This document shows positions 2,151 to 53,272 of a stretch of 64,000 bases of DNA, piece by piece. The notes under the pieces are model-generated. The model worked only from the letters and a program-made list of their open reading frames with translations, had not been told where the DNA came from and searched no databases. How positions within the stretch are numbered: position 1 is the stretch's first letter; each line of letters opens with the position of its first letter. The stretch is taken from contig CAVVTN010000002.1 of assembly GCA_963751115.1 (NCBI GenBank), positions 58,197-122,196 on the forward strand. Direction: 5' to 3'. The DNA is from an uncultured Candidatus Altimarinota bacterium. GTDB lineage: Bacteria; Patescibacteriota; Gracilibacteria; BD1-5; UBA2023. A program made the translations under genes and the position numbers.

Positions 2151-3473
2151 TTATAAAAAATGCTCCGATACTCGTATCTTTTCTTCTGAAACTTCGATGG
2201 TATTGCGAATATGTGGAACGAGAAATGAAGACGGAACTATATGGATATTCACTTTCTGCAACAATTTTCTGAGAATACAAACTTGGAAATATTTGCAAGA
2301 TACAGCAAGATACATAATCGGGTTTTTCGAACGAATAACATTCAAAAACGCTCAAAGACTCGGATTTTTTGGAATCATATCTTCACTTTCCATCTGTGAA
2401 GGAAATGGCGAGAGGAGTCCAAGATCATGATAGGTTACCAGTGAAAAAATACCAGATTTGTTTACTTCTCCAATTACGAGTGGACCGAGAAATCGGCTCA
2501 CACTATGGAGCCATATAACATCTGGCTGAAAATCTCGGATTTTTTTTCGAATCCCTCGAGCAGATGTAACATTACAAAGAGAATATACCAGTCAGAGGAG
2601 TCGAAGAAATTTCGTCCATTTCCCTTTCTGTAACTCCCATCCGAAAATCTCGACTTCATATCCGTGTTGTCGAAGAACTCGTGCGATGGTTTGTACATGT
2701 GTCTCGATACCACCAAGGATTGTCACATAATCACTCGCGAGCAATATTTTTTTCGTATCTTTCGGGAACATATTTCGTACCTGTTCCACCCATCGTTCTT
2801 CGGTATAACTATCGGCGATATGTCGAGATTGGTGAGAGAGTAGTGCCCAATCAGATTCTGTCCTAGTATTTTCGGACGTACTATTCGAAGTATATGTATC
2901 TGAAACTTCTAGGATTTTACTGACAAGTGTTTCTACGTTTTTTGCATCGTTTGTCGAAAATGGGATGGCGAGTTCTGGAAGTATAAAAGGGATGAGTCCT
3001 CATTTTCAAAATCCTATCACGGGAACTCCTTCCGAGAGTGATTCCAAAGCTGAGAGTCCGAAAGTTTCCAAGAATCTTGATGGCATCAGAGTGAAGTGAG
3101 AGACTTCCAATATATCCCGTATAGTTCCCTGTGCCTGCCATCCGAAGAAATAAATCTTGAAATCCTCTCATTCAGATCCCTCACTCCCAACCCCTCTCCC
3201 AAAGGAGAGAGGGGAGTTACTCAGAAGTTCCATAGTATCAAAAATCTCATCCTCTGAGAACTTCGAGCAGTCCTCAAAGAATGGACTTCCTGCAAAAGTT
3301 TCGAAGAATTCTTTTTTCAAATCACCTTCCCCAAATAGGAAGAAATTCCCAGGAAGTTCCCCAGTTTTTTGCACTATTTCTGAAAGCGCTCCGATAATCA
3401 AATCGAAACCTTTTTCTCTCGCGAGTCGTCAGAAGAAGAGGAAGTTCATAGAAAGATTTTCTAAAAAGTACAT
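2151..3473 (-). CDS. GT4-family glycosyltransferase ORF with domains in reversed order (C-terminal Glycos_transf_1-like half first, then N-terminal Glyco_trans_4-like half)
   Basis: One table-25 frame has no TAA/TAG from 3473 to 2151. It reads MYFLENLSMNFLFFGRLAREKGFDLIIGAL...IYFFGWQAQGT..MPSRFLETFGLSALESLSEGVPVIGFGKGGL...SYTEERWVEQVRNMFPKDTKKILLASDYVTILGGIETHVQTIARVLRQHGYEVEIFG...HFL, stop TAA. It joins track ORFs 3168..3401, 2592..2789 and 2151..2345. Confidence 0.65.
3174..3215. repeat. GC-rich palindromic element (ccctcac..cccctctcccaaaggagagagggg type) inserted in frame in the glycosyltransferase ORF
   Basis: Encodes SPLSFGRGVGSEG inside the ORF. Related copies lie at about 35628-35735, 39385-39410, 39713-39766 and 40975-41012. 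Confidence 0.6.
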
Positions 3474-18819: not shown

Positions 18820-18895
18820 TGGAGCCAACGATGGAACTCGAATCCACGACCTCATCATTACCAATGATGCGCTCTACCAACTGAGCTACGCCGGC
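18820..18895 (-). tRNA. tRNA-Thr (anticodon GGU), CCA encoded
   Basis: The reverse complement is GCCGGCGTAGCTCAGTTGGTAGAGCGCATCATTGGTAATGATGAGGTCGTGGATTCGAGTTCCATCGTTGGCTCCA. It folds as a cloverleaf with a 7-bp acceptor stem, a TTGGTAA anticodon loop and a GGTTCGA-like T-loop. Confidence 0.85.
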
Positions 18896-20632: not shown

Positions 20633-21008
20633 ATTCTTCTTTCGGGTAGTAAGCCGGATTCTGTGTCTCGACATACATCTATCTCGTAGTACGGTCGCCC
20701 GTACTCTCTAGCGAGGTATACTTGACTCTCGACCGAGATCGTCATAGAGAATCAAAGTACCATTCCTCTTGCACCGTATAGGGTTTGCCACATAATTATT
20801 CCGAAGAATAATTACATCCGCCTGAAGCGGACTTTTCACCTTTCATCTGCCGAAACAGATTAGTATCGTCTCTGTGGTACTATCCGTACTCCTGGTTTTA
20901 GATATATACAGGAGCCGCAGACGTTATCTGCTATACTATCTCAGTAGTGTCCGGACTTTCCTCTGAGGGTTTTAAATCCTCGGCGTATGTCCCTCCGAAA
21001 GAAGAGGC
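20633..21008 (-). ncRNA. rnpB: RNase P RNA (bacterial type), about 375 nt
   Basis: On the minus strand it contains GAGGAAAGTCCGGAC (the P4/CR-I strand) near the 5' end and ACAGAATCCGGCTTAC (CR-V) near the 3' end. The ends pair as P1 (tcttctttcgg with ccgaaagaaga). No ORF in the region. Confidence 0.8.
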
Positions 21009-24859: not shown

Positions 24860-25381
24860 TTATAAATGAGTAGAAAATATAGAATGAATATGAGAAATAA
24901 GACTCTCCAGATTTCCTGAATTATCTATGTGAATAACGGAGGAGTCGACTGGCACTTGAAAAGAATCTTTGAGAGTACAATATATAGAATAGTCCGCGTC
25001 GCTCACATCATCTCGGCGAGCATCCAATCGTGTTTTGATACTTTCGTCCACATCGCAAGTTACGAGAACAAATACGGTTTCGTATCCTCATACTTCTGCG
25101 AGTTCTTTCACTTCTTGCCGTCGGTATTCATGTCCAAAAACTGCATCCCAAACGATTATTTTCCCTTCTCACATAGCATCTCTCGCACGAATTACACAGG
25201 TTTCCCAAACTTTCTGAGAAGCTATTTTACTATACTCGGGAACAGGAAATAATTCTTTCCGAATCCCATCTGCCGATATGTGAAGAGTTTCCTCTTTTGG
25301 AAGCATATTCAAGAGGTACTTCGCTACCGTCGTCTTCCCACTTCCCGGCAAACCAAATACGATGTAAAGAGTTTTGTTCAT
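24860..25381 (-). CDS. P-loop kinase/ATPase (AAA_33-like)
   Basis: MNKTLYIVFGLPGSGKTT. Track ORFs 25169..25381 and 24860..25051 are in one frame, joined through two TGA codons. Confidence 0.6.
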
Positions 25382-27297: not shown

Positions 27298-28798
27298 ATA
27301 CATCTTCTTCAAACTTTCCAAAACTCCATTGAGTTTTGTTTTACTCTCATCGTTCAAATCCTTTGTTTCCATAATACTTGCAAGAATAGCCCCCTCTTCT
27401 TCGAGTGCTGCATAGAAATCTTTTTCAAATCTCTTGATATCTTCAACGGCGATGCTGTCAAGATATCCATTGGTTCCTGCATAGATAATACAAGTCTGCT
27501 TCTGAAATGGAACAGGAGAATACACATTTTGTTTCAAGATTTCTACCATACGTTTTCCTCGTTCGAGTGCATTTCGTGTATCTTCGTCGAGGTCAGAAGC
27601 AAATTGAGAGAACGCCTCCAATTCACGATACTGAGCAAGAGAAAGTTTCAAAGTTCCGGCAACTCGTTTCATAGCCTTCGTCTGAGCAGAACCTCCGACA
27701 CGAGAAACAGAAAGTCCTACGTTAATCGCTGGTTTAATACCCGCATTGAAAAGATTGGACTCGAGAAATATCTGACCATCGGTGATAGAAATAACATTTG
27801 TTGGAACATAGGCAGAAACGTCTCCTCCCTGAGTTTCGATAATAGGAAGTGCCGTCATAGAACCAGCTCCAAGAGCATCGCTCAATTTTGCAGAACGCTC
27901 CAAAAGACGAGAGTGAAGGTAAAATACATCTCCAGGGTACGCCTCTCGTCCTGGCGGACGACGAAGAAGAAGGGCCATTTCACGGTAGGCATTCGCATGT
28001 TTTGTGAGATCATCGTAGATGATGAGTGAATGTTGTCCGTTGAGCATGAAATATTCTCCAACCGCACAACCTGAGTACGGAGCAAGCCATTGCATAGCAG
28101 CAGGACTCGATGCACCAGCAGCAACGATAGTTGTGTATTCCATAGCACCAGAACGACGAAGTTCTTCGGCAATCGCAACCACCTTAGAATCTTTTTGTCC
28201 GATGGCAACGTAGATACACTTCACATTCTGTCCTTTTTGGTTGAGAATGGTATCGATCGCAATCTGAGTTTTTCCGGTCTGACGGTCTCCGATGATAAGT
28301 TCTCGTTGTCCTCGTCCGATTGGTACGAGTGCATCGATAGCTTTGATACCTGTTGCCATAGGCTCATGAACCGATTTACGACTCATAACTCCTGTCGCAA
28401 CTCGTTCTGTTGGATAGAACTCCGTAGAAACAATTGGACCAAGTCCATCGAGTGGATTTCCAAGTGGATCGATAACACGACCGAGAAGTCCATTTCCAAC
28501 GGGAACTTCGAGAGTTCGACCTGTCGTTTTCGCGATCATCCCTTCCTTGATGGTTTCAACTCCAGAAAGTACTACGACACCGACGAAGTTCTCCTCGAGG
28601 TTCATGGCAACCCCACGAGCTCCTGGATTCGAATTCGACAACTTCGTTGTAGGCAACTTCGCGAAGTCCTACGACTTTCGCGATACCATCCCCGAGGGAA
28701 ATAACTTCTCCCGAATTGACTCGTTCAGGAGATAAATCGGTCGAATCGATTTTCGCCTCGATTTCACGAATAAGAGAGTCGATGAGTTGTGTAGACAT
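27295..28798 (-). CDS. atpA: ATP synthase F1 alpha subunit; one +1 frame change near 28616-28640
   Basis: The N-terminus [17 protein letters not shown]...AYNEVVEFE (track ORF 28556..28798) continues in the frame of 27295..28656 as ..[19 protein letters not shown].. Walker A is GDRQTGKT. Confidence 0.9.
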
Positions 28799-35588: not shown

Positions 35589-35627
35589 GTGATATAGTTA
35601 TAATTTATAAAACAAAAGAAGTGAGGA

Positions 35628-35735
35628 CTTTAAAGGCCCTCACTCCAACTCTCTCCCAAAGGGAGAGAGGGTAAAAAAGAAAAGCAATTTTTCTCCCTTC
35701 TCCCCCTGGGAGAAGGGTCGGGGATGAGGGCTTTC
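35628..35735. repeat. Two GC-rich palindromic elements in inverted orientation
   Basis: Sequence gccctcactccaactctctcccaaagggagagagggt ... ctcccttctccccctgggagaagggtcggggatgagggc. Confidence 0.6.
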
Positions 35736-35736
35736 T

Positions 35737-37058
35737 TTAAAAAAACTTTTTGTAATCATAGCTCTTCAACTCCGTATCCACTCGACGAATAAGTTCGAGA
35801 ACTACTCCAACAACGATGATAAGTCCTGCTCCAGAGATAAGGAAATCTATCTGACCTCCAGCACCTGAAGTATCGAGAATCTGAACAAGTCCATTCAAGT
35901 TTTGACATAAGGTAGGGGAATACTGCAATAAGTGCAAGAAATGATCCTCCGTAGAGATTCAAATGAAGAGAAGTTTTCTCAAGATATTCTGCTGTTTCTC
36001 GTCCTGGACGAACTCCTGGAATATACCCACCACGCTTCTGAATACTTTCTGCAACTTCTTCCGTATTAAATACTATGGAAATATAGAAGAATGAAAATCC
36101 GAGAACGAGAAGGAAGTAAACTCCAATATAGAGCCAGCTTGGATTATTCATAGAAAAATATTCGAGAAGGAATTGTCCAATCTTTGCAGATGTTCCTGCT
36201 CCACGATTGGAGAGAACTTGTCCGATAAGAGCCGGGAAAGTTACGATGGAAACAGCGAAGATAATAGGTATCATCCCTGCTTGATTAACACGAATAGGAA
36301 AGTACGATTTTTCATCTCGTCCTGTTCGAGTATAAATAAGAGGGATTTTTCTAAAACCTTCTGTAAACTTAATGATGATGTATATAACTCCAAGAGTCAT
36401 AATCGCAAGAATCAAGAGAAGTGTATAGTTCTGAACAGAAATATATTGTCATAATATGAGAAGGAACTCCCGCAAGAACTCCGGCGAAGATAATCATAGA
36501 TGCTCCGTTTCCGATTCCTGATTCATTAATAATTTCACCAAGCCACATAAGTAAAAGTGTTCCAGCGGTAATGAAGAGCATAGCAGGAAGAACTACTCCC
36601 CAAAAGTTTGTCACGTCCATAATCTTTCCTCCACCACCAACGAGAGTATTAAGAAGGATAATCATCCCGTAACTCTGCGCAAATGCAAGAGGAACGGTTA
36701 CCCATCGCGTATAGTTATTGATCTTCTTTTGTCCTTGTTCTCCTTCTTTCTTCAGAGCCTCGAGTTGTGGTACGATAACTGCTAGAAGCTGCATGATAAT
36801 AACCGCATTAATATAGGGAGCAAGTCCCATAAGAGCGATTGAAAAATGTTCAAGTCCTCCACCCATGAGGGAACTAAAAAATGCAAGTCCTTGATTGGCA
36901 GCAAGGAAATCCTTAATAGAAAGAAGTGCAGTCGTATTCACTCCAGGAACTGGAACAATAGAAAGGAACTTATAAAGAACAATGATACTAAGTGTTACAA
37001 GGATCTTATTTTTTACATCGGAAGATTTCCAGATACGAGAAATATTTTTGAGAATCAT
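35737..37058 (-). CDS. secY: Preprotein translocase SecY; two +1 frame changes (about 36448-36462 and about 35903-35912)
   Basis: Three consecutive track ORFs in three frames (36369..37058, 35756..36415, 35737..35937) together give a full-length SecY. Confidence 0.9.
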
Positions 37059-37204
37059 AAGGTATATTGATAGAGATAAAAAGGTGTATAGAACGGGGAG
37101 GATTGTATGAAAAAGTACGGTTTAGTCAAATTAAGATTTCGGTAAAAGAAAAATCCCATCTACCAGACTAAAATCTTTTGGTACATGAGATATATCTCTT
37201 CTTG

Positions 37205-37849
37205 CTAATTTTTCGGTTGTATCGCTCATCGTTGATCACTTTCCATCTTTTTCATCATCTCTTTCTCTTTTTCGCATTGGTCTTTAAGACCATATTTCTC
37301 GACGAGAGCACAATCTTTCATCTCTGGTTTTCTCTGTATCGGAGTGGTTCCAGAAGTGCTTAGTGAAATCGGGCGAGGAATGCGATCCAGAACGAAATCG
37401 AGACGACACCGATCTTGTTCATTTTTATCAGAAGAGAATCCATCACAAAGAGTTATATCTCCACTGGAAGCGAGTTGTTTCATGATTTGATTCTGTGCTT
37501 GTTGTTTTGGTATCTCTGATTTTTGTTGGACACAGAGTTTTTGTTGTTCTCGGGAGAGAAGTTTTCGACAGTTAAATGCGAGTCGTTCAGTATCTGAAAG
37601 GTTCATATAGTGAGTAAACACATCGTTTGCTTGGGCATCTTCACAATTGGTCCGCTTCATAGATCATACGGGGAAAGTCGAACAATTCGATGAAATATCT
37701 ATACTTCCTGAGTGAGTACTCGGTATAGAAAAGTCAGAAAGTTGTAATGGTCGTTCGAGTGTATACCCAGAAAGTCGCACTATTATAATAATGAAGATGA
37801 TAACCCCCAAAGTTGAGAGAACTCCGAGAAAGAAAGGTTTTTGTGACAT
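37205..37849 (-). CDS. Membrane-anchored Cys-rich hypothetical protein
   Basis: Track ORFs 37664..37849 (TM helix) and 37226..37660 are joined by TGA, then run to TAG at 37205-37207. Confidence 0.45.
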
Positions 37850-38123
37850 AATAAAAAAATTAAGTGTTAAGAATTAATATATAGGAGTTTTTGTTATTCC
37901 GAGTGAAGCCGAAGTCATTGACTCCCTCTGGTAGGGTGAATCGCTTTAAATCAGCACATTTGAAACAAAATGACGATAAATCACTACAAAAAAAGAATTT
38001 ATGCCTATCTTTATAATAAGTGTCATATTCTTGATCAAAAGGGATACCTCGACTTCATTGCATTTCGTTCGGTATGACACAGGTATCTGTTTGTAAGGTG
38101 AGTTATTTTAAAATCGTATGATT

Positions 38124-38477
38124 TTAGTGGGGCTTCCCCACATATTTTTCCCACCCGACCAATTGTCGGGATATCATCTCGATCCGCTCGTTTATCCGAA
38201 CAAATGAGGCGAGTGGAATCTGGTGAAGATCGTGGGTGACACGGAGAAATATTCGAAGTGTCTCACAGTGTTCACGGGCGATTTTTATATGTGGAAGTCT
38301 CGATTCAAATGACCCGTTGGCTCGATAAATCTCGCGAAGTATCGCCATGGTCTCTGACTTCATCTCTTGACCGATCGTGTACTTATACTCGCGAGTCATA
38401 CCGCGAGTAAACTCGAAAATCGAGACCAAGAGGTCGTATGTTTCTTTGTAAACCGCAAGTTCGGAGGCAAGTCACAT
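38124..38477 (-). CDS. avd: DGR accessory variability determinant (Avd-like four-helix bundle protein)
   Basis: M-G(TGA)-LASELAVYKETYDLLVSIFEFTRGMTREYKYTIGQEM...ANG...LRIFLRVTHDLHQI...QLVGWEKY. It lies immediately after the VR-bearing gene. Confidence 0.8.
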
Positions 38478-38519
38478 TTAGCGAGGAAAGAGTCAAAGAG
38501 ATAAAGAGTCAAGCTATTT

Positions 38520-39338
38520 TTACGAGTTCTTAACACATCGGACATACATAGGAAAGTAGTAGTTGTAGATGTGCCATTGTAGTCGTAGCAGTCCGCACTG
38601 AACGTCCCATTACAATGTACCACCCGTAGCTGGGAGAATAGGCGAGGTAGTAGATGTTGGCGGCGATGGTGTAGTACGCGGCGGGGTACTGGACCAAACA
38701 AAACGACTTGCGGTAAAAGTCATACCAAGCACCCGGGCATATTCCATCTCACTCGAAGTAGGAATCCGCCAAGTACCTGTGGGAGTGAGAGTATTACAAT
38801 AAGAGGCAGCCGCAGAATAAGTAGTTGGTCAAGTATCGGTTGTCTGCCAAGCGATTCCTCCGTAAGTAACCGTGTTGGGTGGAGCAGCGGGAGTGGTAGT
38901 CGGAGCATCGGAAGTACAAGAGAGAGTCGATCCATTGGATGTACACCACTTGCCAGCAGTGAGGGTTCCGATTTGTGATGTCGTAGTAGCATTGGCGACA
39001 TTAAAGTTTGAAGGATTCCATACATAGTAATTAGAACCGTCATTACTTCACCATAACCAAGTTGGTTGTCAGCTTTGTCATGCCCAATTAAAGGGTTTTG
39101 CTGTTATTCATGACCAAGGAGCAGTATCCGCATTCGTAGCAATCTTCACTTTTCCTGTCGTATCCGTTGCATAATTCCCTGATTGGAGTATACGATTAAA
39201 AATCGTAGCGAATTTTCCACCAGCCGTTTCTCATTGCGGTGGAGCTGATGGGTAGGTGAGGGCATAAGCGACAAATACCCCGATCACGAGAAAAAAAGAT
39301 ATAAAATGAAATGTGAATGTTTTGAGAAATTGTTTCAT
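38520..39338 (-). CDS. DGR target protein (signal/TM N-terminus; DUF1566/C-type-lectin-like C-terminus carrying the VR). As assembled, the VR contains frame-disrupting indels and a TAA at 38610-38612
   Basis: MKQFLKTFTFHFISFFLVIGVFVAYA...GIAWQTTDT-G-PTTYSAAASYCNTLTPTGTWRIPTSSEMEYARVLGMTFTASRFVWSSTP.. The expected end ..PMYVRCVKNS with TAA at 38520-38522 is back in the starting frame. Confidence 0.7.
38531..38698 (-). repeat. DGR variable repeat (VR)
   Basis: Homologous to 40763-40928. The boundaries tgtttggtccagtacccc and cctatgtatgtccgatgtgttaagaac are identical. Differences fall almost only at TR adenines. Confidence 0.8.
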
Positions 39339-39373
39339 AAAAGGGAAAAATAAAAAGATAAAAAAATAGATTA

Positions 39374-40737
39374 TTAAACCCCTCCCGACCTCCCCTTCTC
39401 AGGGGAGGAGTAAATATTATCTCCACCTGACAAGGCTCGCGAAGACAGTCCTCTAGAGGAGGGATTAAAAGGGTTTCTTATAGTAGGTGGACTACATCAC
39501 GATTTCACGATACGAACCTTTCGATAGAGTCGATCTGTTTTGAAAAACTGTTTCATACCCCGAGAGAGCCACTTTTCCAGCATCGTTTTTCTGAGACGAA
39601 AAGTATCAAAATTCCCCATATACCCAAGGTAAGAATTGATACGAGAACGTGATTTTTTGAGATATTCCTGATTCAAATCTCATGGAGCCCTCACTTTTCT
39701 ATTCTCTCCTCACACAACCCTCACCCCCAACCCCTCTCCCAAAGGAGAGAGGGGAGTAAGAGATAAACATTGTGTCGCTATTTCCTCCAGAATTTCATGA
39801 AAATTTCCTTTGATACGGTTACGAATATACGTCCGATAGGGTTTTATATACCCACCAATGAAGTCGATACCATCCGATACCCGTCGAAATTCGATTTTCT
39901 GAGGGTGAAGAGAAAGTTTAAGTATATCGGATAGGAATCCGGAGATCTCCGGAATGAGCGATTCGAGGTGTTCTCGTGATGGACTCATAAATATCATATC
40001 ATCCACATATCGTCCATAGTAATGAACCTTGAGTTTCTCTTTTACGAACTGATCAAATATATGCATATACAGATTGGCAAATACTTGACTTGAGAGGTTT
40101 CCAATCGGAAGTCCCACGCCTGACGATGCATGAAAGAGACTTTTTTCGTGAGGGATATTTTCCCAATTGGATCTCGTACCCTTGATGACGCAGTTTTTGG
40201 TCGGATCATTTCTGACGATTTGTTCACAAAGGGAAAAGAGAAGCGGTATCTCGTCTCTTTTGAGGTATCGAGCATCAATCATATCATGAAGAGTACGAAG
40301 GAGAATATTATGATCTGATATGCATGAAAAATCCTGAGATATCCAATTTGAGTATCCATGCTTCTTGTGTATAGTTTTCTGATACACTTCTCATAAATCA
40401 CTCAACTCTATCGATTCCGAAAAAAGTTCCACGTCCCACTCGACAGGCATAACTATCATGAATCAAAGAAGGTTCTATAATAGGATAGTAAGCGATTAAC
40501 AACCAGATGATGGACAATCCTATCACGAAAATCCGCAGCAAATATCTCACGCTTCACAGGTTTATCAACCACAAAGGCAATACTCCGATTGATTTCATAC
40601 TTTCAGGAAATGATATCTTCGTAAAGTTGAATAACATTCGACTCATAGTTAAGTTCAAATTTGAGTGCATTTGTCGTATTTCGTTTATTTTTGCGACATT
40701 GGAAATAGGCAGTAAAAATATCTTCGCAGGTTATCAT
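39374..40737 (-). CDS. DGR reverse transcriptase; two +1 frame changes (about 40495-40510 and about 40320-40338)
   Basis: MITCEDIFTAYFQCRKNKRNTTNALKFELNYESNVIQLYEDIIS-G-KYEI..FRDRIVHH / ..YYPIIEPSLIHDSYACRVGRGT.. / ..GLPIGNLSSQVFANLYM..YGRYVDDMIF..INSYLGYMGNF. It reads through TGA at 39710 to TAA at 39374-39376. Confidence 0.85.
39713..39766. repeat. GC-rich palindromic element inside the RT ORF
   Basis: Sequence ccctcacccccaacccctctcccaaaggagagagggg encodes LSLTPLSPLGEGLGVRVV in frame. A second hairpin (cctcccct-tctc-aggggagg) lies at about 39388-39408. Confidence 0.6.
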
Positions 40738-40762
40738 AGAGAATGAGATAGATAGGGTTCTT

Positions 40763-40928
40763 AACACATCGGACATACATAGGATTGTTGTTGTTGATGT
40801 TGCCATTGTTGTCGTTACAGTTCGCACTGTTCGTCCCATTACAATTGTTCCACCCGTTGCTGGGAGAATAGGCGTTGTAGTTGTTGTTGGCGATGGTGTT
40901 GTTCGCGTTCGGGGTACTGGACCAAACA
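40763..40928 (-). repeat. DGR template repeat (TR)
   Basis: In the VR-equivalent frame it reads VWSSTPNANNTIANNNYNAYSPSNGWNNCNGTNSANCNDNNGNINNNNPMYVRCVKN (AAC/AAT-rich). It ends about 25 nt upstream of the RT start. Confidence 0.8.
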
Positions 40929-41239
40929 TAGAGAAGTCGTATATTCGTGTTATATTTCCACTTTATACCACTTATTTATCCCTCTCTTTTATAAGGAGAG
41001 GTTAGGTGAGGTTTTAAAATGGAGATATCACCTTGTTACTATTCCGAGAGATTCTCGAAACCGACTGCCAACTCGATCTGGCTCACTTATAGATTTTTCT
41101 ATAGAGAAAAGATTTATAATTCTGGCCAGTATCATATTCTCTTTAATTTCCCACGAAGAGAATCTTTTTTCATAATCCTATCACGAAAAAAGACCCCTAA
41201 AATAGGAGTCCAATCGAAGAGAATACAAAGAAATCACTA

Positions 41240-41360
41240 GCTGGTTGCTGGTTGCTGGTTGCTGGTTGCTGGTTGCTGGTTGCTGGTTGCTGGTTGCTGG
41301 TTGCTGGTTGCTGGTTGCTGGTTGCTGGTTGCTGGTTGCTGGTTGCTGGTTGCTGGTTGC
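41240..41360. repeat. Perfect heptanucleotide tandem repeat (gctggtt), about 17 copies
   Basis: Read directly from the sequence. It is open in several frames on both strands purely because of its periodicity. Confidence 0.9.
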
Positions 41361-41510
41361 TATGGGCATAATAGGGAATTTAAATGATTGTCAAGGAGGA
41401 TTGGAGAGAATTATAGTAAGAAATCAGGAAATTCAAAAAGATTTTTGGAGATAAGACTAGAAAGTAAAAAATCCCCTCTCATTTCTGAAAGGGAATTTTT
41501 GATGAAAATA

Positions 41511-41967
41511 TTAGAGAAGTTCTACGGTTCCTCCAGCTGCAGTCACTTTTTCCTGAGCCTGAGCAGAAGCCTTATGGATACGAATCGTTACACTTGATGT
41601 AATTTCTCCATTTCCAAGAAGTTTAATAAGTGCTCCAATATTTGGGATAATACCCTTTTTTGTAAGTACTTCGCTATCGATAGTAGTCACACCTTCTGTA
41701 GCAAGTTTCTGAAGAGTAGAAACATTTACTATAGAAAATACATTTGGTGCATATGCAGTAAAACCACGTTTCTTAGGCATACGTCTGAAGAGAGGAGTTT
41801 GTCCTCCTTCAAAGGCTGCATTGAATTTACCACGACCTGTTCGAGAATTCTGTCCACCATTTCCACGACCAGAAGTACCTCCTTTTCCAGAAGACAACTC
41901 CTCGACCTACTCGCATGCGAGGTTTACGAGAATTTGGAGCAGACTCTATAGTATTGTGAGAGAGCAT
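41511..41967 (-). CDS. rplO: 50S ribosomal protein L15; one +1 frame change near 41897-41905
   Basis: MLSHNTIESAPNSRKPRMRVGRG is in one frame. SSGKGGTSGRGNGGQNSRTG..FEGGQTPLFRRMPKKRGF is in track ORF 41511..41897. Confidence 0.85.
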
Positions 41968-51770: not shown

Positions 51771-53229
51771 TTACAATACTTTCCCCAATTCTCCGATATG
51801 CCCCACTTCTATGAGTTTCACATTAGCTCCTTTTTTGAGCTTGATTCCAGCATTCTTTGGGAGGATGATTTCGGAGAATCCCAATTTGATTGCTTCGTCA
51901 ACACGTTTTTGGAGTCCGAATATATTCTTGATAATCCCAGTCAGGGAAATCTCCCCGAGGAATATCCTCTTCCCGAGTGGGGTATTTTTCTTGGAAGAGA
52001 TAATCGCTGCAACAGTTGCGAGATCGATTCCTGGCTCGGAGATAGATAATCCTCTGGCAACATTGACATAGACGTCGTAACTCTCCAACTTCGTGTCGCT
52101 CCACTTAGAAAGTACCGCGATAAGGAGATCAACTTTCCCAGAAGGAATTCCGCGAGCCGATCGCTTTGGGTAACCAAACTTGGTATAGGTCGAAAGAGCT
52201 TCTATCTCGATAACAATCGGGCGATTTCCTTCGAGAGTGATCCCGAGAGCCGAGCCAGAGAGATGTTCATTTTCCTTGTCGACAAATTCGAGACCCGGAT
52301 TCGGGATATCGATGAGTCCATTTTCTGTCATGCGAAAAAGTCCAATCTCATCGGTCGGACCGAAACGGTTCTTGAGAGCTCGGAGTATGCGATAGTCCTC
52401 ATATTTACTTCCTTCGAGAAAAAGCACTGTATCGACGAGATGTTCCAGAATCTTCGGACCAGAAATCGTTCCTTCCTTCGTCACATGTCCGATAAGGATA
52501 ATAGAACGACCCGTTCGTTTGGAGAATTCCATAAAAACCTCAGTCACGTACCGAATCTGTCCGATACTTCCCGATTGCGAACCGATATCGAGCGAAGAAA
52601 TCATACTCACGGAATCTATGACGATAAGTCCAGAACTATCTTTTTCTAAAGTTTCGAGAATATCTTCTAGCGTATTCGCGGTGAAAATATGAATATGTTC
52701 GTTGGCGATGCCAAGGCGATGTGCTCGATCAGAAATCTGGTGGATATTTTCCTCAGCAGAAACATATACTGCCGTACGCACAGTAGAAATTTCAGAAACC
52801 TCTCAAAAGCGAAGAGATTTGTGCGAAAGATGAGTATCTGAATCGAGTCGTAATAGATTCTACGGCGAATGAAGAAACGGAGTCTTGAACTCAAAGGTCG
52901 AGTTTTTCAGAGGTTTTTCCTGCAAACCAGTCGGTGATTTGAAGTGCCAGCGTCGATTTTCCAATTCCTGGCTCTCCAGAGAGGAGAATAAGACTTCCGG
53001 GGGTTAATCCATCACCGAGTACTGTATTGAGTTCATTACTTCGAAGTTGTACTTTGTGATAGATTCTTGTGCTTCGAGTATTTGAAATACTTTTTGCTCT
53101 TTTCCACTCGTTTGTTTTTTGCTTTTAGAGAGAATCAGTTTCCTCTTCCAAAGTACTCCACTCTCCACAACTTGGACATTTCCCTTGCCATTTTTGACTG
53201 GTGGCACCACATTCACGACATCGATACAT
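51771..53229 (-). CDS. radA: DNA repair protein RadA/Sms; several frame changes and an in-frame TAA (53125-53127) in the 5' third
   Basis: The zinc finger [24 protein letters not shown], Walker [14 protein letters not shown] and the Lon-like C-terminus (track ORF 51771..52781) are all present, but they are distributed over different frames upstream of about 52790. Confidence 0.8.
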
Positions 53230-53272
53230 ACAAGTGAAATTAAAGATTATTCAAATACTATATTTCTTGCCT

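Follow-up and report, generated by a model that had tools for sequence, protein, structure and literature searches.

A predicted DGR cassette between rplO and secY of an uncultured Gracilibacteria bacterium

In most bacteria the genes rplO and secY are neighbours within the spc operon. In the window (the whole 64-kb stretch of DNA that was analysed), the end of rplO (41511) and the start of secY (37058) are instead 4,452 nt apart, with all genes of interest on the minus strand. A preliminary description of the locus had reported a DGR and a Cys-rich membrane protein gene in about 4.4 kb between the two genes and on the same strand, in agreement with this measurement; the heptamer repeat, TR, reverse transcriptase (RT), VR-bearing target, avd and 214-aa protein that it listed were all located in the interval. 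It further proposed that the DGR lies within an operon and may be coupled to ribosomal transcription. Is the cassette part of a ribosomal operon, or cargo at the edge of one? We consider it probable that it is a cassette of ~4.3 kb that works as a canonical DGR, carried as boundary cargo with its own promoter, and that its frameshifts are assembly errors. The features of the region are as follows.

41967-41511, minus: rplO (L15), final gene of the ribosomal cluster (Pfam Ribosomal_L27A, 2.4e-18)
41466-41500, minus: intrinsic-terminator-like hairpin and T-tract directly after the rplO stop (-18.3 kcal/mol, z -3.5)
41436-41410, minus: promoter-like TTGAAT-15-TATAAT, pattern match upstream of the heptamer array
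41394-41368, minus: promoter-like TTGACA-15-TATTAT, pattern match upstream of the heptamer array
41240-41361, minus: heptamer array (AACCAGC)x17.4 (TRF, 100% matches, score 244)
41186-41211, minus: second terminator-like hairpin and T-tract, after the array (-13.7 kcal/mol, z -3.45)
40928-40757, minus: TR (repeat families D2, D3, D4 and D14, and alignments), touching the RT start codon
40737-39374, minus: DGR RT (stitched sequence against Pfam RVT_1, 6e-18)
39338-38520, minus: DGR target gene, with N-terminal hydrophobic anchor, tail-fibre-like motif and C-terminal DUF1566/Lcl_C-like domain
38700-38526, minus: VR, at the 3' end of the target
38477-38124, minus: avd, 117 aa (Pfam bAvd 6.5e-11; score 43.1 bits, cut-off 40)
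37891-38076, plus: conserved non-coding block of ~190 nt between avd and the Cys protein gene (blastn)
37849-37205, minus: orphan membrane-anchored protein, 214 aa, with N-terminal hydrophobic segment and 8 conserved Cys
37144-37190, minus: terminator-like hairpin and T-tract after the Cys protein gene (-20.6 kcal/mol, z -3.75)
37102-37129, minus: secY promoter-like TTGACT-N16-TACAAT, top minus-strand scan match (10/12)
37058-35737, minus: secY (stitched 439 aa against Pfam SecY, 3.5e-91)
35600-35740, minus: GC-rich double palindrome and terminator-like hairpin 3' of secY, outside the insert

Gene content of the cassette

Switching from translation table 11 to table 25 raises the summed length of ORFs of 100 aa or longer more than twofold, and UGA was therefore read as Gly. 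TGA codons occur in frame at conserved Gly positions of the RT and the target, and the second codon of avd is TGA (Gly). Because the cassette is written in code 25, it is part of this gene pool.

The stitched RT contains the motifs YVDD and IGNLSSQ and can be aligned from end to end with thousands of RTs of the DGR type. A search of 5.8e9 protein clusters returned 6,336 homologues at E<=1e-10 (coverage 93-100%), the top identity being just 53%. The adjacent TR has an Asn (AAC)-rich frame, which reads YVWSSTPNANNTIANNNYNAYSPSNGWNNCNGTNSANCNDNNGNINNNNPMYVRCVKNP. Although A occupies just 50 of the 141 TR positions, 17 of the 18 TR/VR substitutions fall at TR adenines (14 A>T, 2 A>C, 1 A>G). Avd also matched NCBIfam DivGenRetAVD (4.5e-9), under its cut-off. 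Judged by the TR/VR adenine pattern, the RT, Avd and the VR at the target 3' end, the cassette is a complete DGR. From what is known of the family, the RT and Avd would copy TR RNA into cDNA, misincorporating bases opposite adenines, and this cDNA would replace the VR. A cell-surface protein would thereby be diversified at the ligand-binding face of its DUF1566/C-type-lectin-like domain.

The C-terminal domain of the target closes with MYVRCVKNS. Lcl_C matches in the target and three relatives were weak (E 7e-4, 3e-4, 0.01 and 0.025), all under the gathering score. The AlphaFold model of the target had a pLDDT of 33, and the target gave no match to PDB sequences. The sub-threshold Lcl_C and FGE matches suggest that the domain may have a C-type-lectin-like fold.

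Related cassettes were found in two settings. In the closest relative, a sister cassette (L083/L084) with the order RT-target-avd-VapBC-cys and ~80% nt identity ends at the 5' end of the 16S rRNA gene, and the rplO-secY site of the same bin is empty (L001). A contig from an independent assembly (L085, Logan SRR25490547) is collinear with positions 38548-35736 of the window, and its SecY is 96.8% identical. Avd is 97% identical in amino acids in L085 and 92% in L083/L084. One of two extra codons in the window VR aligns also with the L083 sister VR; between the L083 and L084 assemblies, the sister VRs differ in a few codons (compare also P0208 and P0127).

The orphan protein is encoded by the final gene of the cassette and moves together with it: in L083/L084 the gene accompanies target-avd, and in L085 it accompanies avd-secY. 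It had no Pfam or NCBIfam match, and its homologues number 6 among 5.8e9 clusters, with 9 matches among 1.84e9 representatives. The membrane protein is thus present as described earlier, but "Cys-rich" is a modest description, since it has 8 Cys in 214 aa. The non-coding block upstream of its gene is inverted and moved in the sister cassette, and is missing from L085.

The boundary between rplO and secY

Synteny with relatives breaks off at 37132 and is back at ~41466-41496, delimiting a non-syntenic insert at ~37133-41465 by blastn. The comparison set comprised 80 related species-level loci. Spacers were taken from 67 species representatives, which do not amount to a population study; the rplO-secY spacer had a median of 131 nt and exceeded 400 nt in 13 of them, and the rpsE-rplO distance was never above ~520 nt. 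In the comparison across relatives that the preliminary description had suggested, the insert is absent or replaced by other cargo: a restriction-modification methylase with its specificity subunit (N6_Mtase with Methylase_S), an AbiEii toxin, pilin-like proteins such as a pilin/LamG protein, and unknowns, partly on the opposite strand (L012, L014). In L008, the genes beside secY are unrelated and lie on the opposite strand, and rplO is absent from the surrounding 7.8 kb.

The hairpin at 41466-41500 marks the left edge of this cargo site. A post-rplO hairpin of <=-10 kcal/mol with a T-rich tail is present in ~55 of 67 relatives. The layout of A-tract, GC stem and T-tract is kept in the lineage, the stem sequences vary, and a comparison of 10 close relatives revealed compensatory changes at 5 of 12 pairs. 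The secY promoter-like element marks the right edge. In the close relatives L001-L010 and L029, even those with other inserts, both hexamers and the 16-nt distance between them are retained, and the spacer has a few substitutions. The cassette lies exactly between the two. Because a terminator follows rplO in the relatives and a promoter-like element precedes secY in the close ones, rplO|secY in this lineage is, on these predicted signals, the boundary of two transcription units and not the interior of an operon. It appears to be a boundary that has repeatedly accepted foreign cargo, of which the cassette would be one case. The placement had been called unusual, and a DGR was indeed found there in 0 of the 80 loci; the site, however, is an operon boundary, and 13 of 67 relatives carry other cargo there. 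Given the boundary and the frequent accessory inserts, the DGR would be an ordinary element at a well-explained spot.

Two promoter-like sites at 41368-41436 were missed by a scan for 16-18-nt spacers because their spacers are 15 nt. We infer only that they are candidate cassette promoters, 15 nt being non-optimal. Transcription from the cassette's own promoter, with terminator-like hairpins insulating both sides, would most likely account for its expression. The heptamer array downstream is the sole long simple repeat in the 64 kb, and no such array was found in 86 fetched loci; it falls within a doubtful 62-aa ORF (41369-41181).

A DGR embedded in the spc operon, with read-through from the highly transcribed ribosomal genes coupling diversification to growth rate, would be consistent with the common strand of cassette, rplO and secY, with the 16S rRNA gene as a likewise highly expressed neighbour of the sister cassette, and with the lack of a strong 16-18-nt-spaced sigma-70-like promoter on the minus strand at 41465-40930. 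Intrinsic terminators can also leak. We nevertheless regard this as unlikely, because a canonical, lineage-conserved T-tract hairpin separates rplO from the cassette, a second, terminator-like hairpin follows at 41211-41186, a conserved promoter-like element serves secY alone, and relatives carry unrelated cargo at the same site, partly on the opposite strand. These signals, together with those of the cassette, do not support the coupling to ribosomal transcription that had been proposed; some read-through from rplO may still take place.

Of the GC-rich palindromes said to punctuate the insert, only two lie within it, at 39718-39758 in the RT and at 39389-39408. Two further ones lie after secY, outside the insert, where perfect hairpins occupy 35649-35669 and 35695-35717 (region 35600-35740 folds at -59.7 kcal/mol, z -5.2) and a terminator scan matched at 35646-35618. 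As stated earlier, secY is not followed by adk, map and infA. This reflects a lineage trait, since the gene after secY encodes an RNase T-like exonuclease in the window and in 39 of 80 relatives. The assignment of adk to a site ~15 kb away was not confirmed: NCBIfam gave no adenylate-kinase match for the sole P-loop kinase nearby (24860-25381), and apart from this kinase and RadA, no Adk-type P-loop motif was found in six code-25 frames.

Frameshifts in and around the cassette

The preliminary description had left unmentioned the single-base frameshifting indels of rplO, the RT, the VR and secY. As assembled, the RT occupies three frames, shifting by +1 near 40480 and again near 40335. The VR has three single-nt deletions (frames 2>1>0>2) and a stop codon inside. 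The flanking genes are also broken. A window-only 1-nt insertion at ~41894 splits rplO and is absent in L001, L009 and L010; relatives match rplO residues 1-151 in one HSP, and the window N-terminus is in another frame. Two window-only 1-nt insertions (36449 and 35898) put secY in three frames; they are absent in 5 relatives, and secY is unbroken (439 aa) in L085 and GTDB relatives. Two more window-only insertions, at 28624 and 29455, lie in genes outside the region. The RT frame shifts share the +1 direction with the window-only insertions. Around the insert, 6 indels fall in ~6 kb against 0 in 8.5 kb of adjoining ribosomal genes, a clustering that errors scattered evenly at random do not account for. 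Because window-only 1-nt insertions also break the essential secY (twice) and rplO, a technical origin is the simpler one, and errors in the assembly consensus are the most likely cause of the frameshifts in rplO, RT, VR and secY.

If the RT and VR frameshifts were real, the DGR would be a decaying, non-functional relic whose A-to-N differences record past activity. The two frame changes in the RT, the three in the VR and its internal stop codon point this way, as do the palindromic element inserted in the RT (39718-39758, adding ~20 aa in frame) and an RT ORF that overruns its usual C-terminus, reading through a TGA at 39499 where homologues stop. This reading is improbable in view of the similar insertions in secY, rplO and the two outside genes, and of the intact catalytic motifs and full-length similarity of the RT. 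Moreover, the palindrome lies in a loop where the Gracilibacteria homologue P0001 also has extra residues, and the three VR deletions all fall on TR adenines, as if the consensus caller had collapsed polymorphic sites.

That a chimeric or mis-scaffolded contig misjoined the cassette into the rplO-secY gap is highly improbable: the indels cluster around the region, homologous cassettes elsewhere lie on short contigs that break in the RT or VR, and the site of the closest bin is empty, but exact synteny resumes on both flanks, so two compensating misjoins would be needed, the insert sits exactly in the terminator/promoter gap used by other inserts, and the independent L085 contig repeats the order VR end-avd-cys-secY, which argues against the chimera that the preliminary description had itself raised.

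Resemblance to known systems

DGRs are reported to be abundant in CPR/Patescibacteria, small-genome episymbiont lineages (Paul et al. 2017, as relayed in PMC10221324). The cassette resembles these DGRs and the prototype of Bordetella phage BPP-1 in its RT with YVDD and IGxxxSQ, its predicted Avd four-helix-bundle accessory protein, its adenine-specific TR/VR differences, the VR at the C-terminus of a surface-exposed protein, and a target with DUF1566/C-type-lectin-like features. The window order is TR-RT-target-avd, whereas that of BPP-1 is mtd-avd-TR-brt and the canonical order, seen in the Gracilibacteria DGRs L081 and L082, is target-avd-TR-RT. Further differences from these systems are that the TR touches the RT start codon, a search for a VR-proximal hairpin found none, the leader carries a 17-copy heptamer array, and an orphan Cys membrane protein co-travels.

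Heptanucleotide repeats occur in the hmw promoters of Haemophilus influenzae, among simple-repeat contingency loci. The window array is likewise a long perfect 7-nt array that precedes a set of genes and closely follows a promoter-like element. None of the relatives examined has it, and the likeness is a resemblance only.

Integration and defence-island hotspots between core genes are found in E. coli, Pseudomonas and Vibrio. The present site differs in that its flanks are rplO and secY, its cargo is small (0.4-4.7 kb), and no integrase, target-site duplication, tRNA, att-like repeats or other mobility signature was found flanking the insert. It shares with the hotspots a fixed gap between core genes, which holds accessory modules that vary from genome to genome between syntenic neighbours.

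Gene content and genetic code of the rplO-secY interval

Every gene relevant to the finding lies on the minus strand, and the region is listed below in the order of transcription.

Genes and repeats of the rplO-secY region (window coordinates; TR, template repeat; VR, variable repeat)
42662-42012, minus strand: rpsE
41967-41511, minus strand: rplO (Pfam Ribosomal_L27A, 2.4e-18)
41361-41240, minus strand: heptamer array, (AACCAGC)x17.4, perfect
40928-40757, minus strand: TR
40737-39374, minus strand: reverse transcriptase, RT (Pfam RVT_1, 6e-18)
39338-38520, minus strand: target gene, with the VR at its 3' end
38700-38526, minus strand: VR, 3' end of the target gene
38477-38124, minus strand: avd (Pfam bAvd, 6.5e-11)
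37849-37205, minus strand: Cys protein, 214 aa; hydrophobic N-terminal segment, 8 Cys; no Pfam match
37058-35737, minus strand: secY (Pfam SecY, 3.5e-91)
35588-34986, minus strand: RNase T-like exonuclease (Pfam RNase_T, 1e-15)

The ORF map and the Pfam matches that back it agree with the coordinates and gene inventory of the preliminary description, which were therefore correct. Its observation that adk, map and infA do not follow secY is also true, and the same holds in relatives that carry the exonuclease at this place. The claim that adk lies 15 kb away found no support in profile and motif searches. Elsewhere in the window, a class A RNase P RNA (20634-21002) and a tRNA-Thr gene (18820-18895) are syntenic with relatives, for example the locus L014.

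Most window genes were fragmented under translation table 11. Counting only ORFs of 100 aa or longer, the total ORF length more than doubled under table 25, in which UGA encodes Gly, indicating that the window comes from a code-25 lineage. In-frame TGA codons occur at conserved glycines of both the RT and the target, and the cassette is thus written in the code of its host.

Several genes are broken by indels, which the preliminary description had overlooked. Single extra bases, absent from every relative compared, were found in rplO (near 41894), in the secY 5' UTR (37099), twice in secY (36449 and 35898), and in the genes at 28624 and 29455. The RT contains two frame changes, both +1, near 40480 and 40335, in a part that no relative covers. 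The VR contains three single-base deletions (38682, 38616 and 38573), all at TR adenines, which break its frame in the assembly, and two extra codons, one of which aligns with the VR of a sister cassette. Indels are denser near the insert; the neighbouring 8.5 kb of ribosomal genes contain none. Examination of the frameshift sites for a shared context (created TGA codons, homopolymers) gave no consistent pattern. Because essential genes (secY, rplO) are broken alike, the frameshifts look like assembly consensus errors and not decay; the deletions at adenines would be in keeping with consensus calling on a polymorphic VR. In radA (about 52600-53250, minus strand), an apparent break after the Walker A motif, comprising about 130 nt and a frame change, could stem from a further indel or from a small insertion.

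A divergent diversity-generating retroelement

The RT sequence, stitched across its broken frames, recovered 6,336 homologues at E ≤ 1e-10, aligned over 93-100% of its length and including RTs that adjoin bAvd genes; the best identity was only 53%. The alignment shows 'GRYVDD' and 'IGNLSSQ', corresponding to the catalytic YxDD and IGxxxSQ motifs. The IGxxxSQ motif is specific to RTs of diversity-generating retroelements (DGRs); in the assembly, the gene is spread over three frames. NCBIfam models for group II, retron and Drt RTs all scored far below their cut-offs. At 39499 the RT frame runs through a TGA exactly at the end point of homologous RTs, and reading this codon in code 25 gives a 41-residue extension into a GC-rich hairpin.

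The TR/VR alignment spans about 170 nt. In its variable part, TR adenines account for 17 of the 18 substitutions (14 A>T, 2 A>C, 1 A>G), adenine making up 50 of the 141 aligned TR positions. Translation of the TR gives an Asn-rich frame of the kind usual in DGR templates, and a 27-nt 3' block, CCTATGTATGTCCGATGTGTTAAGAAC, is identical in TR and VR with its adenines unchanged, resembling an IMH region. Exactly one TR and one VR are present in the 64-kb window, a search of which for a second VR found none. The target gene terminates at 38520 (protein C-terminus ...MYVRCVKNS), and the VR makes up its final ~60 codons. Folding revealed no stable hairpin downstream of the VR (z +0.8), a feature that is not universal among DGRs. 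Avd scored 43.1 bits against Pfam bAvd, above the gathering score of 40, and 36.6 bits against NCBIfam DivGenRetAVD, under the cut-off of 80.

The element is a genuine DGR of the CPR type, although a divergent one. A passage of PMC10221324 citing Paul et al. 2017 reports DGRs as abundant in CPR bacteria, and the present one adds a divergent example, its RT sharing no more than 53% identity with any public sequence. The gene order is unusual, and an orphan membrane protein, the Cys protein, travels with the element. DGRs located elsewhere in the genomes of two Gracilibacteria relatives (L005 and L006) have the canonical order target-avd-RT.

The target matched Lcl_C (DUF1566) at E 7e-4, and its homologues in three relatives at E 3e-4, 0.01 and 0.025; one relative's target also matched FGE-sulfatase at E 5e-4. 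As all these matches are below the gathering scores, a C-type-lectin-like fold of the C-terminus is only probable. A PDB sequence search with the target gave no match, and a single-sequence AlphaFold2 model (without alignment) of the target homologue P0127 was unusable (pLDDT 33); homologues of the VR domain were too scarce for an informative alignment. A target motif, PWSGITAKPFNWAGQSGQPTWLWGSNDGSNYYVWNPSNFNV (about 39110-38990), has the look of a shuffled module: it recurs in many unrelated proteins, including some with the tail-fibre chaperone domain Peptidase_S74, and the sister target lacks it.

GC-rich palindromes, described earlier as punctuating the insert, are present, but only two lie inside it, the other two being located after secY. 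One is an element of about 40 nt that occurs in two copies (3178-3218 and 39718-39758) sharing an identical core, CCCTCTCCCAAAGGAGAGAGG (at 3192-3212 in the first copy). Each copy falls within an ORF of the minus strand, the first in one of 440 aa and the second in the RT, into a variable loop of which the element is inserted in frame, adding about 20 residues. It is a small dispersed repeat. The second palindrome within the insert is a hairpin between the RT and the target. An exact 16-nt repeat, TTTTCGTGATAGGATT (minus strand; 41174-41189 and 40516-40531), links the leader upstream of the TR to the FRDRIV-coding part of the RT, and could be a relic of RT duplication or due to chance.

Insert limits and transcription signals

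For comparison, 80 loci of relatives were taken from a scan of GTDB species genomes with stitched SecY (47-97% identity), their labels being mostly Gracilibacteria or Patescibacteria. In blastn against the closest relatives, the window is collinear up to 37132 and again from about 41466-41496, and in L001, the closest genome on the ribosomal side (95% nt identity), the rplO-secY gap is only ~140 nt; the non-syntenic insert thus measures about 4.33 kb (37133-41465). Comparison of the interval across related genomes, as the preliminary description had proposed, gave a median spacer of 131 nt among the 67 relatives with both genes placed. No match to the window RT, target, Avd or Cys protein was obtained by tblastn against the 80 loci, so that, set against the species representatives, a DGR at rplO-secY is peculiar to this genome.

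The preliminary description had also named breaks at the insert edges, as left by a chimeric contig, as the observation that would overturn it. A Logan contig from an independent run (L085, SRR25490547) is collinear with window 38548-35736, covering the end of the VR, avd (97% aa identity), the Cys protein (69%) and an intact 439-aa SecY (96.8%). With the right-hand junction confirmed independently there and synteny restored on both flanks, a chimeric assembly is very unlikely.

The insert and its edges contain the following predicted signals.

Terminator-like and promoter-like features (window coordinates)
41500-41466, minus strand: terminator-like hairpin after rplO (-18.3 kcal/mol, z -3.5)
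41436-41410 and 41394-41368, minus strand: two promoter-like sites (spacers of 15 nt) immediately preceding the heptamer array
41211-41186, minus strand: terminator-like hairpin after the array (z about -3.5 to -3.8)
37190-37144, minus strand: terminator-like hairpin after the Cys-protein gene (z about -3.5 to -3.8)

All close relatives have, immediately after the rplO stop codon, an A-tract, then a GC-rich stem-loop and then a T-tract; the stem sequences vary between genomes while the pairing is kept. Of the 12 pairs of this hairpin, 5 show compensatory changes in an RNAalifold analysis of 10 close relatives, and a scan found a hairpin of -10 kcal/mol or lower with a T-rich tail after rplO in about 55 of the 67 loci. 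The top minus-strand promoter-like match in the region, TTGACT-N16-TACAAT, lies about 75 nt upstream of secY and is kept in L001-L010 and L029, with only a few substitutions, in the spacer. The T-tract on one side and the -35 hexamer on the other flank the inserts of the window and of L003, L010 and L029. In L008 (SecY 93% identity), secY and the promoter-like element adjoin unrelated opposite-strand genes, and rplO is absent within 7.8 kb of secY. No RNA family above noise was found in an Rfam search of the insert.

The DGR had been proposed to be embedded in the ribosomal operon and possibly coupled to its transcription. Against this stand the terminator-like hairpin after rplO and the promoter-like element belonging to secY. 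Co-transcription of rplO and secY free of intervening signals, as in an spc operon with an internal secY, does not appear to apply here. The terminator- and promoter-like signals flanking and within the cassette argue for rplO, the cassette and secY being insulated transcription units, and coupling of the cassette to ribosomal-operon transcription would be possible only via terminator read-through. As judged from sequence, the Gracilibacteria ribosomal-protein cluster appears to end at rplO, with secY under a promoter-like element of its own, which matters for annotation and for the use of the cluster as a synteny marker. The DGR is probably not wired into the ribosomal operon; it lies at an apparent operon boundary that is used repeatedly for accessory genes.

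A recurrent cargo site and a transferable cassette

Spacers longer than 400 nt, up to 4.6 kb, were found in 13 of the 67 relatives and contain differing cargo; the rpsE-to-rplO distance is at most about 520 nt in all relatives measured.

Cargo between rplO and secY in relatives (coordinates of the respective loci)
L037: N6 DNA methylase with HsdR_N domain, type I specificity subunit, lipoprotein
L038: AbiEii toxin and partner ORF
L042: pilin-like LamG protein
L018: secreted protein
L003, L010, L029: function-unknown proteins, 234-838 aa
L012, 4253-6159, and L014, 7725-10001: segment of GC 53-56% with a conserved opposite-strand ORF of ~550 aa, code 25

The GC-rich segment of L012 and L014 looks foreign, and an Rfam search of these inserts gave no match. 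One intergenic position with syntenic core flanks thus carries unrelated gene sets across genomes, as in a variable cargo site, and the position of the DGR is explained by a lineage-specific operon boundary used in this way. No recombinase or integrase gene was found in the insert, and no att-like repeat, flanking direct repeat or target-site duplication was seen at its junctions. Neither a DGR at rplO-secY nor an rplO-secY hotspot is described in the literature searched.

Two leads are less ordinary: the hotspot as such and the heptamer array in the leader of the cassette. The rplO/secY gap is a handy place to search for mobile defence and surface-variation modules in hard-to-study episymbionts. 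We consider it improbable that the full combination holds, namely that the gap is a lineage-wide Gracilibacteria hotspot, that the DGR is phase-variable via a hypermutable heptamer array, and that the Cys protein partners the target. If it did, the hotspot would take up defence and surface-variation modules, here a mobile DGR cassette; the array would switch or tune DGR expression from the leader; and the Cys protein would function in partnership with the variable surface protein.

The Cys-protein family is very small, with 6 homologues among 5.8e9 clusters and 9 matches among 1.84e9 representatives. A homologue of 73% identity is encoded on a 3.6-kb contig of Gracilibacteria CG2_30_37_12 (L083; L084 is its ENA re-assembly). 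This sister cassette carries the RT C-terminus, target, avd, VapB/PIN and Cys protein, with ~80% nt identity to the window, and the contig ends inside the 5' end of a 16S rRNA gene (AGAGTTTGATCATAGCTCAG, L083 3526-3577). The rplO-secY site in the same bin is empty (L001). Given this second location and the empty site, the cassette behaves as a unit that can be transferred, Cys gene included. The VRs of L083 and L084 differ in a few codons, which suggests that diversification may be ongoing in the sister cassette. A scan of viral contigs found nothing, and a scan of JGI metagenomes with Avd found one uninformative 1.1-kb locus.

The sister cassette ends ~300 nt upstream of the 16S rRNA 5' end, so that it too adjoins a highly expressed locus of the translation machinery. 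Between avd and the Cys-protein gene, the window contains a conserved non-coding block of ~190 nt (37891-38076). In the sister cassette this block is inverted and located between the RT and the target (L083 465-652, L084 443-630), and L085 lacks it; a small element with a mobile or regulatory role could be involved.
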